From NCBI GenBank assembly GCA_963821875.1, contig CAWGFE010000004.1:52692-116691 (forward strand): a stretch of DNA of 64,000 bases, written 5' to 3'. Below are positions 44,353 to 49,313 of this stretch, piece after piece. The stretch is from an uncultured Alphaproteobacteria bacterium. Its GTDB lineage: Bacteria; Pseudomonadota; Alphaproteobacteria; CAVTAV01. The translations under genes were made by a program, and so were the position numbers. Numbering within the stretch: the first letter of the stretch is position 1; the number at the start of each line of letters is the position of its first letter. The notes beneath the pieces are model-generated. The model saw only the letters and a program-made list of their open reading frames with translations, did not search any database and was not told the origin of the DNA.

Positions 44353-45699
44353 CTAGGCGTGTTCGGCGGTTGCCCGGCGTTTATAGGCGGGAACGCCGAT
44401 GATCAGAAGTCCGGCGCTGATCAGCGCCGCCACCGTGGAGACGGCGGAGATCGAGTGCCCGACCGCAGCGTCGTTCGCGAACACGAAATCCGTAATCGCC
44501 GAGACAGCGGACGGGCCAAGCCCGACGCCGAATATGGTGACCATGACCAGGTAAACGGCGATCACCTGCCCGCGCATTTCGTTCGGCGTCACCGCTTGCA
44601 GCGCCGCCTGAACCAGACCGACCGGAGCGCTCAGGAACAGCACCATCAGCGTCAGACAGCCGAGTGTCCAATACGGGCTCGGGACGGCGACGAACAGCAG
44701 CGCCGGGGGGACGGTTCCGCACATGGCGACGATCATGATCGTGCTGTAGGCGGCGATATGACCGCGTTTCAGCATGATCCCGGCGAGCCAGCCGCTGAAC
44801 AACAACCCGAAGGTTCCGCAGACGATCGTGATCAGGCCGATATCGAGACCGATCTGGCCCATATTCCAACCATAGACGCGGCGGAAGGTTGTCGGCGCCC
44901 AGCTGAAGGCGCCATAGCCGGCCATGGCGGAAAATGCCGCACCAAGCATGAGCGTCGCATAGACGACCCAGTGCTTGCGGACGTAGCCGAGAGCCTCGCC
45001 AAGCGTCACGCCGCCCGTCGCGCTCCGCTTTTCACGGCGTACGGGCTCCCGGATGGTGAAGGTGAGCAGGACGACCAGGAAACCCGGCAGGGAGACGAGG
45101 ATGAAGGCCAGCTGCCAAGGCTTCAGCGTGCCGAACATCAGAATTTCCTGTCCGCCGGCGGCCGCCGTGAGGGCGGCAATCGCGCCGCCGAATATATTCG
45201 CCAGACCGGCGCCGACCTGAACGCCGGCGGCATAGAGATTGATCGGCAGGCCGCGTTTTTCCTTGGGGAAATAGTCGGAGATCATCGAGATCGCCGACGG
45301 CGACAAGGCCGCTTCGCCGACGCCGACGCCAAGCCGGGCCATGAAGAGGTGCCAGAAGCTGCTGGCGAGTCCGCAAACGCCGGTCATGATGCTCCACAGG
45401 AACACGCCCGTCGCGATGATGTTCCGGCGGTTCCGGCTATCCGCCAGCCTGCCGATGGGAATGCCGAGCACACCGTAGAAGATCGCGAAGGCGAGACCTT
45501 GAAGCAGGCTGAATTCGAAATCCGTTATCGCGAGATCGTGGCGGATCGGATCGACCAGAAAGGCCATGATCTGCCGGTCGACGAAGGCGATCGTATAGGC
45601 GAAGAACAAGATGAAGACGACGTACCAGCCATAAGCACTCGACGGATAGCCGTCGTCCGCAGAGGGCGGGGGCGTGCCGATAACCGGTGGCTCGCTCAT
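44353..45699 (-). CDS. MFS transporter (spinster-like), paralog 1
   Basis: FVDRQI, GRLADSRNRR, GVGVGEAALSP, PNEMRG. Confidence 0.9.
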   Translation of the reverse strand: MSEPPVIGTPPPSADDGYPSSAYGWYVVFILFFAYTIAFVDRQIMAFLVDPIRHDLAITDFEFSLLQGLAFAIFYGVLGIPIGRLADSRNRRNIIATGVFLWSIMTGVCGLASSFWHLFMARLGVGVGEAALSPSAISMISDYFPKEKRGLPINLYAAGVQVGAGLANIFGGAIAALTAAAGGQEILMFGTLKPWQLAFILVSLPGFLVVLLTFTIREPVRREKRSATGGVTLGEALGYVRKHWVVYATLMLGAAFSAMAGYGAFSWAPTTFRRVYGWNMGQIGLDIGLITIVCGTFGLLFSGWLAGIMLKRGHIAAYSTIMIVAMCGTVPPALLFVAVPSPYWTLGCLTLMVLFLSAPVGLVQAALQAVTPNEMRGQVIAVYLVMVTIFGVGLGPSAVSAITDFVFANDAAVGHSISAVSTVAALISAGLLIIGVPAYKRRATAEHA

Positions 45700-45720: not shown

Positions 45721-47052
45721 CTAGACGCCGAGCGCGTCGGCGGAGCGCTTGTAGTATTTTATGCCGATAAACAGCGATGTGATGCCGACGATGGTCGCGG
45801 CGGTGCCGACAACGGCCACCGACTTGCCGACATCGGCCGGGTTCTTGAAGAAGAAGTCGGTGAAGGCGGCGACGACCTGGTTGAAGATGCCGTTGGCAGT
45901 GATGTTGAGGATCAGGAAGTAGATCGCGATCACCTGGCCGCGCATTTCATTGGGCGTCACCGATTGCAGCGCCACGGGCCCGAGCCCCACATGGAACGAG
46001 AGGCCCAGCATGAGAATCGCGAGGCAGCCCATCGTCCAATACGGATTGTGAACGGCGACGAGAAGGACAAAGCCGATCAGTACGAGGCATTCGGCGCCGA
46101 TCATCATCTTGTGGAACACGGCTTTTTTCCCGGCGCGAAGAAGCTTGGTCGCCAGCCACCCGCTGAAGACCAGACCGATCGGGCCGCAGACGCCGATGAT
46201 CGTGCCGAAATAGGAGCCGAGCTCGCCGCGGGTCCAGCCGAAATTACGGTCGTAATAGGCCGGAATCCAGTTGATCAGAGCGTAATTCGAGGTCGCGAAC
46301 AGGGAGACACCGACAATCAGCGTCAGATAGGTGCCCTTGTGCTCGCCGATATAGCGCAGGGTTTCGGCAAATTTGGCGTCCGCACGCCGTTCGTGACGCG
46401 CCGGTTCCTTCAAGGTCAGCACCAGAAGCGCGATCAGAAGGCCCGGTATGCCGACCATCAGGAACGCGAACTGCCAGGCGTGAATCTCGCCGAGAACGGG
46501 GATCGTCTGCGGCCCCATAGAAAGTGCCGCCTGCGTCGCAAGACCGCCGAAGATATTGGCGAGACCGGCGCCCACCAGAATGCCTGCGGAATAAACGTTG
46601 AGCGGCAGGCTTCTCTTCTCGCGCGGGAAATTATCGGTGATCATCGAATAGGCGCAGGGCGACAGGGCCGCCTCGCCGACGCCGACGCCGAAACGGCCAA
46701 GGAAGAGCTGCCAGTAATTGGCGGCGACGCCGCACCAAGTCGTCATGACGCTCCAGACGGCGATGCCGGCCGAAATGATATTCCGGCGATTGTGGCTGTC
46801 CGCCAGACGGCCGATCGGAATGCCCAGGACGGTATAAATAATGACGAAGCCGAAGCCGCTCATGAACGCGAAAGCCGAATCCGAGATATGAAAATCGGCT
46901 TTGATGGGATCGACCAGGAAGGCGAAAATCTGCCGGTCCACGAAGGACAGCGTGTAGGCCAGAAACAGAACCGCGACCGCGTACCAGGCGCGCGCCGACG
47001 ACGGATATGACGGCGTCGGCTGAGCGCCGCCAGTCTGCGAACTGTCACTCAT
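45721..47052 (-). CDS. MFS transporter (spinster-like), paralog 2
   Basis: Same motifs as the adjacent paralog; ATG at 47052. Confidence 0.9.
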   Translation of the reverse strand: MSDSSQTGGAQPTPSYPSSARAWYAVAVLFLAYTLSFVDRQIFAFLVDPIKADFHISDSAFAFMSGFGFVIIYTVLGIPIGRLADSHNRRNIISAGIAVWSVMTTWCGVAANYWQLFLGRFGVGVGEAALSPCAYSMITDNFPREKRSLPLNVYSAGILVGAGLANIFGGLATQAALSMGPQTIPVLGEIHAWQFAFLMVGIPGLLIALLVLTLKEPARHERRADAKFAETLRYIGEHKGTYLTLIVGVSLFATSNYALINWIPAYYDRNFGWTRGELGSYFGTIIGVCGPIGLVFSGWLATKLLRAGKKAVFHKMMIGAECLVLIGFVLLVAVHNPYWTMGCLAILMLGLSFHVGLGPVALQSVTPNEMRGQVIAIYFLILNITANGIFNQVVAAFTDFFFKNPADVGKSVAVVGTAATIVGITSLFIGIKYYKRSADALGV

Positions 47053-47400
47053 ATGGCTATTTCTCCCCCCGGATCGCAAGCCGCGTCCCACTGACCGAGG
47101 GAGCAGCTTTTGTGATCGATACCCTAAAGTCAAGGGAATCGGGGCCGCCCTGCGGAACCGGTCGTGGATGCGTGGCGGAGGGGCCGGAGAGGGATCAGGA
47201 AAAAATTCTGAGGAGCCCGCCGATCAGACGACAGGCCCCTGAAATCAGGACTTCTTGCGGACAGCACATAACGCACCGCACCAACGTTTCAAGGCCGGTC
47301 GGAGCGCTGCCCGATATAAGGACACTATGACAGGTTTCGCGAATCAGAATCCGGGATTCATGATATCGCGAAAATATCAGCCGTTATAAGGCCTTAGACC

Positions 47401-47616
47401 TTAGGCCGATAGGTTCTTCAGAGTCTCGGGATCGGCGAAATACACCAATTCGAGGCGGCGAGCATAGGTAATCGCCTCTTCGCGCGAAGAAAAACGCGCC
47501 TGAAGTTCCAGGTTATCCGGCAAGGTAAAGGGTGACACACGAACGAAATCGACGATCCGTGTCGCGGTGACCTCTCGCCGGTCATTTTTGACGAGCATAA
47601 CGCCGTAGCGGTTCAC
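47401..47616 (-). CDS. Hypothetical small protein
   Basis: 71-aa ORF in an AT-richer gap; GAGGA RBS precedes an out-of-frame ATG at 47624. Confidence 0.4.
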   Translation of the reverse strand: MNRYGVMLVKNDRREVTATRIVDFVRVSPFTLPDNLELQARFSSREEAITYARRLELVYFADPETLKNLSA

Positions 47617-47937
47617 AGTTTCATATCCTCTTTGGATCTTTAGACGCTCAATTCTTTAACTAATCATTTGGCGTCTTTGGGGTTTTTGGCGTCCAGACAG
47701 CCTACCCTGTGGACCATAACATAGGGCATTCAGCCGGGATCTCAAGTCGATATTGCAATTTCTTGACAATGAGCCGAGATCGCCGCTTTTTGGCCGCAAT
47801 TCATTGATGTTCTTCATCATTAGTGAAATGATGCTTCGGAAGCCGGTTCCCACCCCGGGCACTTTCGCCCTTCCCGTGCCCACGGCTTTCAGGGGGCCGG
47901 GTTGCCCTGTCCAGAACCAATCAAGGGGAGACATTGG

Positions 47938-48243
47938 ATGCAAAAGAATCTCCGTACAGTAGCCAAGGCGTTTGTTGTGATCGCTCCCGCCGTCTTGTTC
48001 GCGGGCTGCGCCACGCTCAGTGATCAGGATAAGGCCACGCTCGACAAGGCGAGCTCTGACGCCGCGACGGCGCAGCAGCAGGCCTCGAGCGCTCAGACGG
48101 CTGCTCAGCAGGCCGCTCAGCAGGCGCAACAGGCTGCGGACGCCGCCAAGTCCGCCCAGCAGGCTGCCGAACAGGCTGCCGCCGAAGCGCGGGCCGCGTC
48201 CGAAAAGGCGGAGCAGGTCTACAACCAGCGCCTTAAGAAGTAA
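47938..48243 (+). CDS. Lpp/OprI-like alanine-zipper lipoprotein
   Basis: AAGGGGAG RBS; lipobox LFAG-C24; Ala/Gln heptad helix; C-terminal NQRLKK. Confidence 0.85.
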   Translation: MQKNLRTVAKAFVVIAPAVLFAGCATLSDQDKATLDKASSDAATAQQQASSAQTAAQQAAQQAQQAADAAKSAQQAAEQAAAEARAASEKAEQVYNQRLKK

Positions 48244-48268
48244 GATTTCCAGGACAATCTGGCTTGAT

Positions 48269-48311
48269 CTGGCCCGGCGGGGACGCAATGCCCTCGCCGG
48301 GCCAGTTATTT
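48269..48311 (+). terminator. Terminator after the lipoprotein gene
   Basis: CTGGCCCGGCG...CGCCGGGCCAG stem followed by TTATTT. Confidence 0.7.
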
Positions 48312-48350
48312 AAGCCCGGTCGATAGTCGCCGTGGCCGGCTGATTTTGCT

Positions 48351-49313
48351 TTATTCGGTAATCCGGACCGGAACGCCGTCCCGCACGCGGGAGGCTTCGA
48401 ACACGGCATGCCAGTCGATATCGTCGGCCTTCGAGCCGGCGACCGCCATAACCTGCTGGCGCAAATTGGGAACCTCATCCTGGGTATAGTTTCCAGTGTT
48501 CTCGATCTGCTCGACCTGTTTCATGCTGGGCGAGATTTCGAGATAGAGCGCGCCGTTATGCCAGCCGAGCTTCACCGGCTGGGACACGACATTCACCGGC
48601 GTGCCCACTTTGGCCCATCCGAAGAGTTTTTCGATGTCTTCCGGATAGAGGCGCATGCAGCCGTGGCTGACGCGGCGCCCGACTCCCGGCGGCTTGTTGG
48701 TGCCATGGATGAGATATTCGTCCCAGCCGAGATCGAGCGCGTAATTGCCGAGCGGATTATCCGGCCCCGGCCTTACCGCTTTCGGTAAATCGGGATGTTC
48801 CTCGAACGAGCTTTTGGTCGGGAACCAGACCGGATGCCTGCGCTTGCGGGCGACGATGGTCTTGCCGAGCGGCGTTTCCAGGCCCTCGCGGCCGATGCCG
48901 ACAGGGAAGGTCGCGACATGCTTGCCGTCGCGCGAATAGTAATAGAGCCGCATCTCGGCGATATTGACGACGATGCCTTTATGAGGCGCGGCGGGTAGAA
49001 GGTGGGCGCCCGGAACGACGATGGTCCGTCCGTCGCCCGGAATGAAGGTGTCGACGCCCGGATTGGCCGCCTTGAGCTCGTCGAAACCGACGTCGTAAAG
49101 CCGTGCGACGTCGATCAGTGTTTCCTTGCCCTCGATGATATGCAGCCTGGTCGAGCCGACCAGGTCGTCTTTCAGGTCGTAGACGGCGACGAAAGGCTTG
49201 TCGGGACCGCGCCCTATCTCGGAAATCGAGGGGACGGCGGCACTGGCGGAAACAGCCGCCGTGGCGAGACCGGCGACGAGGCCGGCGGTGGTAAGAAGTA
49301 AGGACAACCGCAT
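48351..49313 (-). CDS. L,D-transpeptidase, YcfS/ErfK type (signal peptide, LysM-like, YkuD and C-terminal domains)
   Basis: ETLIDVAR.YDVG...AANPGVD, NIAEMRLYYY, GPDNPLG, IHGTN...VSHGCMRL, VKLGW...LYLE. Confidence 0.93.
   Translation of the reverse strand: MRLSLLLTTAGLVAGLATAAVSASAAVPSISEIGRGPDKPFVAVYDLKDDLVGSTRLHIIEGKETLIDVARLYDVGFDELKAANPGVDTFIPGDGRTIVVPGAHLLPAAPHKGIVVNIAEMRLYYYSRDGKHVATFPVGIGREGLETPLGKTIVARKRRHPVWFPTKSSFEEHPDLPKAVRPGPDNPLGNYALDLGWDEYLIHGTNKPPGVGRRVSHGCMRLYPEDIEKLFGWAKVGTPVNVVSQPVKLGWHNGALYLEISPSMKQVEQIENTGNYTQDEVPNLRQQVMAVAGSKADDIDWHAVFEASRVRDGVPVRITE

Follow-up and report, generated by a model that had tools for sequence, protein, structure and literature searches.

Does an alphaproteobacterium possess its own Lpp-type tether from the outer membrane to the cell wall? 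This question is raised by two adjoining genes in a 64,000-nucleotide (nt) stretch of DNA from an uncultured Alphaproteobacteria bacterium (GenBank assembly GCA_963821875.1, contig CAWGFE010000004.1, positions 52,692 to 116,691), referred to below as the window. One gene encodes a small lipoprotein rich in alanine and glutamine, and the other encodes an L,D-transpeptidase (Ldt). According to surveys made with the Pfam LPP model PF04728, Lpp is confined to a few gammaproteobacterial orders (bioRxiv 10.1101/2021.05.31.446380; PMC8263019). It has also been stated that no Lpp homologues are known in Alphaproteobacteria (PMC10470522; PMC10787603), and that Brucella and related Rhizobiales are without lpp (PMC10787603). 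A literature search, limited to the listings and text passages available, returned no report of OprI- or Lpp-type lipoproteins in Alphaproteobacteria; text consulted from papers on Rhodothalassium and on PapS of R. rubrum likewise offered nothing of relevance. The gene type is annotated but unstudied, since the NCBIfam model NF040598 exists and RefSeq labels an Azospirillum gene of this kind.

We find that the locus is a real, well-conserved and uncharacterised member of the OprI/Lpp-type tether cassettes. By analogy with the known systems, we consider it probable that the pair forms such a tether, in which the Ldt would attach the C-terminal Lys of the lipoprotein to peptidoglycan. The features of the pair, in window coordinates, are listed here; lengths of proteins are given in amino acids (aa), and G001 denotes a genome of the same genus.

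47938 to 48243, + strand: lipoprotein open reading frame (ORF), ATG at 47938, stop codon TAA at 48241 to 48243, 101 aa
47925 to 47930, + strand: ribosome-binding site GGGGAG, 7 nt 5' of the ATG, kept in G001 (alignment)
47938 to 48006, + strand: lipoprotein signal peptide, residues 1–23, MQKNLRTVAKAFVVIAPAVLFAG, with the lipobox residues L-F-A-G at its end
48007 to 48240, + strand: mature lipoprotein, 78 aa, with Cys24 at 48007 to 48009 and Lys100-Lys101 at 48235 to 48240
48351 to 49313, − strand: 320-aa L,D-transpeptidase, ErfK/YbiS/YcfS/YnhG type, predicted periplasmic, with a Sec signal peptide from residue 1 to about 26
48588 to 48977, − strand: YkuD catalytic domain of the Ldt, residues 113–242 (PF03734, E 8.8e-29, 101.4 bits, cut-off 23.4)

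An OprI-Type Alanine-Zipper Lipoprotein

The lipobox LFAG-C at residues 20–24, followed by Ala at position +2, identifies a type II signal peptide. The mature protein contains 27 Ala and 16 Gln among its 78 residues and ends in NQRLKK. Its best heptad register is unbroken throughout: 18 of the 21 a/d positions are hydrophobic, 16 of these being Ala, and none of 2000 shuffles of the same residues matched the heptad score. The AlphaFold2 monomer, predicted from the 84-row alignment described below, is a single helix covering residues 29–100, with a mean predicted local distance difference test (pLDDT) score of 91 and values of 94–98 in the helix. At the textbook rise of 1.5 Å per residue, the 72 residues of this predicted helix correspond to about 108 Å. 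A three-copy prediction of residues 25–101 from the same alignment gave a median score of 0.37 against a mark of 0.42, and the three controls scored 0.00. The lipoprotein occurs as a single copy in the source genome. The locus had previously been described from its letters alone, and this sequence-only reading reported a 101-aa lipoprotein with LFAG-C, Ala at +2, a 78-aa Ala/Gln heptad helix and the NQRLKK end. The ORF, the sequence and the heptad test agree with that description, and the coordinates and the account that it gave of the gene pair are correct.

The lipoprotein matches NF040598, "Lpp/OprI family alanine-zipper lipoprotein", along nearly the full profile (residues 9–92 aligned to positions 3–88 of 90; E 1e-9). 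Of the 13 Pfam families listed for it at E ≤ 1, none is LPP (PF04728), and at E ≤ 100 BLASTP did not align it with Escherichia coli Lpp; therefore, the protein is not Lpp sensu stricto. An exhaustive phmmer search of 1.84 billion representatives at E ≤ 1e-3 yielded 83 relatives, nearly all of them 83–156 residues long and most aligning to or near the last residue of the query. In the resulting alignment of 84 rows (the query plus 83), NF040598 matched 81 rows at E ≤ 1e-3 (best 3.6e-19), and PRK15396, the model for enterobacterial Lpp, matched two. The lipobox is present in 81 of the 84 rows as a pattern match, and a C-terminal Lys in 68. The near-invariant columns are C24, three core Ala and K101. 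When the profile of this alignment was compared with the PDB, the top matches were E. coli Lpp-56 variants (E 0.0012–0.02) and 9tz4, a 'Major outer membrane lipoprotein' (E 0.0036). The single lipoprotein sequence gave nothing significant in the PDB. A word-indexed homologue search, too insensitive for such a low-complexity protein, returned only six matches, and tblastn against plasmids found none, presumably due to the low-complexity filter.

As judged from these profile matches, the protein is best classified as an OprI-type alanine-zipper lipoprotein lying just under the curated thresholds. The sequence-only reading had called it "Lpp/OprI-like" and proposed a comparison with hidden Markov models (HMMs) of the Alanine_zipper and LPP kind. 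That comparison assigns it to the Lpp/OprI alanine-zipper family, with scores slightly short of the cut-offs. The OprI half of the earlier name stands through NF040598, and the protein is not Lpp proper, given the missing PF04728 match and BLASTP alignment.

Two groups of relatives differ at the C-terminus. In a subset of the family, one to six residues extend past Arg-Lys, as in ...RKTRS (Azospirillum, L089:2151-2414), ...RKTAPPQ, ...RKPAR and ...RKTTP (also in loci L053, L111 and L116). These extra residues suggest either C-terminal trimming or attachment via a non-terminal Lys. In one alphaproteobacterial subclade (L008–L012 and L106), the helix is cut short and a Gly-rich tail comes after it, ...TQSHATGRGMRNK; these lipoproteins keep the terminal Lys, and their genes are still convergent with that of the Ldt. 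The helices of differing length in the family offer a natural series for relating tether length to periplasm width.

The Transpeptidase and Other YkuD Proteins

The predicted catalytic residues of the Ldt are His203, in the motif LIHGT, and Cys219 (codon 48657–48659), in SHGCMR. It has been reported that SxGChA is typical of the hydrolase DpaA/YafK and SxGChR of transpeptidases (PMC10434034). The motif of the window Ldt is SxGChR, the transpeptidase form. The best NCBIfam models are LdtE (183.2 bits), PRK10190 (179.2 bits) and PRK10260 (178.6 bits). Because all three scores are far under the equivalog cut-offs (480–583 bits), the enzyme is a relative and not an orthologue by the NCBI rule. Its pairwise alignment with E. 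coli LdtE spans 227 residues at 44% identity (E 5e-55).

The full-length architecture of the ErfK/YbiS/YcfS/YnhG type, consisting of a LysM-like region, YkuD and a C-terminal domain, is found in end-to-end alignments. Residues 67–319 align to positions 51–303 of 310 in PRK10190, and residues 52–318 to positions 37–305 of 306 in PRK10260; in the PDB, 9tyw_A is matched over residues 49–319 (E 2.1e-61) and 4lzh_A over 52–318. The LysM-like N-terminal domain itself has one weak match (TIGR02899, E 0.01, residues 65–87). No Pfam model matched the C-terminal domain, which is covered only by the full-length alignments to PRK10190, PRK10260, 9tyw_A and 4lzh_A. Of the three domains named in the sequence-only reading, YkuD with its SHGC motif is firmly supported, and the LysM-like and C-terminal domains are weakly documented.

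The PDB entry 9tyw_A is a 322-residue 'L,D-TPase catalytic domain-containing protein', and 9tz4_A, with 59 residues, matches the C-terminal half of the lipoprotein family profile. The two codes are neighbours, and the entries may represent an anchoring enzyme together with its substrate, both of the same organism.

The source genome has four YkuD genes. Besides the window Ldt, they encode an LdtD/YcbB-like protein (PRK10594, 226 bits, SHGCLR), a DpaA/YafK-like protein (NF040599, 258.6 bits against a cut-off of 365, SSGCYA) and one small protein without a family match. The DpaA/YafK-like gene lies at positions 281332–281625 of the same contig, about 180 kb from the pair. Its product is a candidate for detaching the lipoprotein from the wall.

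Conservation of the Pairing

A scan of genome contigs for the Ldt gave 34 loci. A strict pattern filter recognised a neighbouring lipoprotein at only nine of them, none of which was alphaproteobacterial. An HMM based on the window protein together with six relatives found a lipoprotein gene adjoining the Ldt gene at 19 of the 34. In 15 of these 19 loci the lipoprotein gene is convergent and downstream, like that of the window, and in four it lies upstream on the same strand. All 19 lipoproteins end in Lys. The linked loci include all five titled Alphaproteobacteria or Rhodospirillales, which are metagenome-assembled genomes (MAGs). Others come from Gammaproteobacteria (Cellvibrionales, Halomonadaceae and Ectothiorhodospiraceae) and from Desulfobacterales or "delta" MAGs. 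The remaining 15 loci showed no lipoprotein gene within the available DNA around the Ldt.

We screened 401 genomes of the same class, with thresholds of E ≤ 1e-5 for NF040598 and E ≤ 1e-30 for the Ldt. NF040598 matched in 27 genomes, seven of them above the cut-off; at least three of the 27 matches look spurious, being long ORFs or lacking a terminal Lys (L061, L062 and L064). A homologue of the window Ldt, 44–56% identical where full length, lies within 1.5 kb in 19 of the 27 loci. The Ldt type was detected in 60 of the 401 genomes, and 25 of the 27 NF040598-positive genomes are also among these 60 (from a comparison of the two lists). Starting from the enzyme, a lipoprotein was found within 1.5 kb in 21 of the best 30 Ldt loci of the class.

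One example is provided by plasmid p3 of Azospirillum brasilense Sp7. It encodes an 87-residue lipoprotein, labelled 'alanine-zipper protein' in RefSeq, with the lipobox LAAG-C and the end ...SQRKTRS. Its gene is located 17 nt upstream of the gene for an "L,D-transpeptidase family protein", whose identity to the window Ldt is 45.5%. Because this carrier is cultivable, the tether question is testable at the bench.

The gene pair is thus not a rarity of the source genome, the Ldt type occurring in 60 of 401. The sequence-only reading had made conserved pairing a test of its proposal, and the pairing recurs both within and beyond the class (19 of 34 loci, 19 of 27, and 21 of the best 30). These sequence matches show that a sizeable minority of Alphaproteobacteria has an OprI-like alanine-zipper lipoprotein whose gene is linked to that of an Ldt. 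Such pairs contradict the widely repeated statement on the distribution of these tethers.

Host and Descent of the Cassette

The source genome encodes GcrA (PF07750), which among the bacterial controls was matched in Caulobacter only. The history of the enzyme was examined in an unrooted maximum-likelihood tree of 75 Ldts (quick search), in which the nonalphaproteobacterial rows are chance finds of a peptide-pattern scan. A single branch sets all 41 alphaproteobacterial rows apart, with a support of 99 in the Shimodaira–Hasegawa-like approximate likelihood ratio test (SH-aLRT). This corresponds to one label change, and none of 500 shuffles gave a number as low. These rows comprise same-class genomes, named MAGs and Azospirillum, and carry many family codes. 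A tree of 56 Ldts gave the same picture (support 98). Rows without an adjoining lipoprotein are scattered among those with one, and E. coli LdtA, LdtB, LdtC and LdtE form one clade with Shewanella (support 100).

The host is an alphaproteobacterium, as shown by GcrA and by the nesting of the Ldt with Alphaproteobacteria and Rhodospirillales loci and with Azospirillum; the earlier placement of the host in this class is supported. The tree argues against a recent gammaproteobacterial import, and, being unrooted, it does not prove vertical descent. Within the tree, the Ldt of L038, on a contig titled Vagococcus sp. (Bacillota), lies beside E. coli LdtA on very short branches. This contig is probably an enterobacterial contaminant.

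In G001 the region is syntenic and 74% identical. In a second genome of the same genus (67% complete), the region is absent from the assembly. Three metagenome DNA runs contain the window's version of it at ≥99% identity and with no indels. An RNA run gave two short contigs at 97–99% identity, from a library that may contain DNA, and one metatranscriptome contig covers 48075–48251 with two differences, both at third codon positions. The RNA contigs are a weak hint that the lipoprotein gene is expressed.

Proposed Mechanism and Alternatives

Building on the observed sequence features, family relation, conserved pairing and host class, we propose the following scheme. The lipoprotein would be exported, lipidated on Cys24 and delivered to the outer membrane's inner leaflet. 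Its alanine-zipper helix of 72 residues would then span the periplasm to the sacculus, probably as a trimer by analogy with Lpp. In the periplasm, Cys219 of the Ldt is expected to form a thioester acyl-enzyme with the meso-diaminopimelate carbonyl of a donor tetrapeptide stem. The ε-amino group of K101, or possibly K100, would resolve this acyl-enzyme and fix the lipoprotein to the wall, as in the OprI/LdtPae2 and Lpp/LdtA-C systems. The DpaA/YafK-like amidase encoded elsewhere in the genome could free the lipoprotein again. We infer the outer-membrane location, the trimer, the covalent bond and the identity of the enzyme that makes it.

Several observations weigh against this scheme. The NF040598 match reaches 38.7 bits, below the cut-off of 43, and that to Pfam Alanine_zipper (PF11839) reaches 16.6 bits (E 0.0094), below the cut-off of 23.1; the low complexity of the sequence inflates weak matches. 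In 16 of the 84 aligned rows the last residue is not Lys, and many of these have one to six residues after RK, as in Azospirillum ...RKTRS. Among the best 30 Ldt loci of the class, nine lack a lipoprotein within 1.5 kb; in three of the nine (G164, G168 and G183) it is found 1.4–4.5 kb away on the same contig, and in G011 on another contig. In G001, the lipoprotein gene carries two frame-breaking 1-nt insertions (L081:2010-2430 compared with window positions 47900–48320), and the match to the Ldt is split between two frames (residues 1–225 and 221–320). These breaks may be assembly indels or reflect decay of the cassette in that lineage. Anchoring and cross-linking Ldts are reported to be inseparable by phylogeny or sequence lineage (PMC10434034). 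Because E. coli LdtA, LdtB, LdtC and LdtE form one clade, the window Ldt is no closer to the anchoring paralogues than to the cross-linking one. Adjacency alone is no proof of anchoring either, because this position is occupied in E. coli by ldtE, the gene for the cross-linking paralogue. As to anchoring versus cross-linking, only the gene linkage speaks for anchoring, and the searched literature contained no biochemical evidence on any alphaproteobacterial member.

The leading alternative, which we consider rather unlikely, is that the Ldt acts mainly as a 3-3 cross-linker like E. coli LdtE, the lipoprotein being a free outer-membrane spacer or scaffold or being bound by another enzyme. The convergent lpp-ldtE layout of E. 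coli is the same as that of the window, and LdtE (YnhG) is listed as a cross-linking enzyme (PMC10434034). The LdtE model is also the best NCBIfam match of the window Ldt, although its 183 bits are barely over the 179 bits of the YbiS/ErfK-type models. A noncovalent precedent is found in Rhodobacter sphaeroides, where the outer-membrane lipoprotein DalA (RSP_1200), with LDT genes flanking its own gene, reportedly binds peptidoglycan noncovalently (PMC10470522). However, the source genome encodes a separate LdtD/YcbB-like enzyme for 3-3 cross-links. Conservation of the C-terminal Lys, which is near-invariant in the family and present in 19 of the 19 Ldt-linked lipoproteins, is difficult to account for if the protein is not attached. 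In Pseudomonas aeruginosa, moreover, the single enzyme of the same lineage, LdtPae2, is the only one that anchors OprI (PMC10434034).

Two other explanations concern the locus as a whole. The cassette could have been acquired recently by horizontal transfer from Gammaproteobacteria, and would then be uninformative on Alphaproteobacteria at large. The next-best Ldt matches after the alphaproteobacterial MAGs are indeed gammaproteobacterial (42–46% identity), and the Ldt type occurs patchily across the class (60 of 401 genomes). Nevertheless, we judge a recent transfer very improbable, since the G+C content of the pair (0.60–0.63) equals that of its flanks and the tree places all 41 alphaproteobacterial rows on one side of a branch (SH-aLRT 99; 0 of 500 shuffles); the locus is also syntenic in the same-genus genome. 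We give almost no credence to the explanation that the likeness to OprI and Lpp is a low-complexity artefact and the adjacency a matter of chance. The lipoprotein is 55% Ala plus Gln (43 of 78 residues), both HMM cut-offs were missed, the single-sequence PDB search gave nothing significant, and BLASTP to E. coli Lpp was empty. On the other hand, the similarity of the relatives extends from the signal peptide through the final residue and includes a conserved Cys, register and terminal Lys, the pairing recurs in three proteobacterial groups, and the heptad register was found in 0 of 2000 shuffles. The relatives and the recurrent pairing largely refute an artefact or chance.

Comparison with Known Tethers

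The proposed OprI/Lpp-type tether most resembles the OprI system of P. aeruginosa. Both lipoproteins are small alanine zippers with a C-terminal Lys and share the family models PF11839 and NF040598. The window Ldt belongs, like LdtPae2, to the ErfK/YbiS/YcfS/YnhG lineage and has the SxGChR motif. This lineage is described as including the E. coli enzymes ErfK, YbiS and YcfS, which anchor Lpp, and YnhG, which cross-links (PMC10434034). The set of a cross-linker, a candidate anchor and a YafK-like enzyme also has its counterpart in P. aeruginosa, where LdtPae3 is the YafK-like member (PMC10434034). Unlike OprI, the window lipoprotein occurs in an alphaproteobacterium, falls under both cut-offs, ends in Lys-Lys instead of Arg-Lys and has a precursor of 101 aa. 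In Pseudomonas, oprI presumably adjoins ldtPae2; the consulted literature on PA2854 did not confirm this.

In E. coli K-12, lpp (+) and ldtE (−) are likewise convergent, 63 nt apart, and Lpp shares with the window lipoprotein a helical heptad structure and a terminal Lys. The Lpp of Dickeya is reported to end in Lys-Lys as well (PMC12729407). Unlike E. coli Lpp, to which it has no detectable pairwise similarity, the window lipoprotein has a core of Ala in place of the Leu/Ile/Val-rich Lpp core. Its helix is also longer, about 72 residues compared with 56 in the Lpp chains of the PDB. Of this Ldt lineage, E. coli has four in-paralogous members and the source genome has one.

Other ways of fastening the outer membrane have been described. 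In Brucella and Agrobacterium, β-barrel outer-membrane proteins are tethered by their N-termini (Godessart et al., cited in PMC10787603 and PMC8263019). The substrate there is the N-terminal Ala-Asp of porins, in contrast to the C-terminal Lys of a lipoprotein proposed here. In Coxiella burnetii, the outer-membrane lipoprotein LimB is bound to meso-diaminopimelate via a Lys side chain (PMC12729407). Unlike the window lipoprotein, LimB uses the internal Lys21 and is described as Coxiella-specific, and not as an alanine zipper, in that source (PMC12729407). DalA of R. sphaeroides is about 18 kDa, binds noncovalently as reported and has homologues in Terrabacteria (PMC10470522), unlike the window lipoprotein, whose mature form is in the 7.9-kDa class. 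Judged by size alone, homology between the two looks unlikely.

The peptidoglycan of R. sphaeroides contains 4.3% of a Tri-Lys-Arg muropeptide, whose donor protein was unknown to the authors (PMC10470522). Loss of DalA lowers this muropeptide from 4.3% to 1.1% (PMC10470522). The OprI-like family offers candidate donors for such orphan Lys-Arg muropeptides in Alphaproteobacteria. We tentatively raise the possibility that the cassette is an old proteobacterial staple joining outer membrane and wall, inherited in Alphaproteobacteria (the Ldt type being found in about 15% of the sampled species), Gammaproteobacteria and Desulfobacterota. The lpp-ldtE pair of E. coli might then be a late, diverged descendant, so that Lpp would be no recent gammaproteobacterial invention, and the family might be the source of Lys-Arg muropeptides in Alphaproteobacteria, including the Tri-Lys-Arg of R. 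sphaeroides.

The Intergenic Hairpin and Neighbouring Genes

The convergent lipoprotein and Ldt genes are separated by a gap of 107 nt, which contains one further feature.

48269 to 48311, no strand assigned: 14-bp G+C-rich hairpin followed by UUAUUU, a probable terminator between the convergent genes, with its stem at 48269–48305; the stem is kept in G001

The segment 48241–48352 folds with −50.3 kcal/mol (z −3.27), and none of 200 shuffles was as stable. This hairpin is absent from the list of a simple terminator scan, the count of which was at chance (4 compared with 2.6 ± 1.8). A simple promoter scan, whose counts were also at chance level, identified no promoter elements for the lipoprotein gene. 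The ribosome-binding site and the terminator that the lipoprotein gene had been credited with from the letters alone both have a counterpart, namely GGGGAG 7 nt from the ATG and the probable terminator formed by the hairpin and UUAUUU.

On the 5' side of the lipoprotein gene, window positions 47200–47900 have a G+C content of 0.51, compared with about 0.62. This stretch includes a putative 71-aa ORF (47401–47616, − strand) with no function assigned. Further upstream of the pair are two tandem paralogous genes for transporters of the major facilitator superfamily type (44353–45699 and 45721–47133, − strand), the products of which have long stretches in common near the N-terminus.

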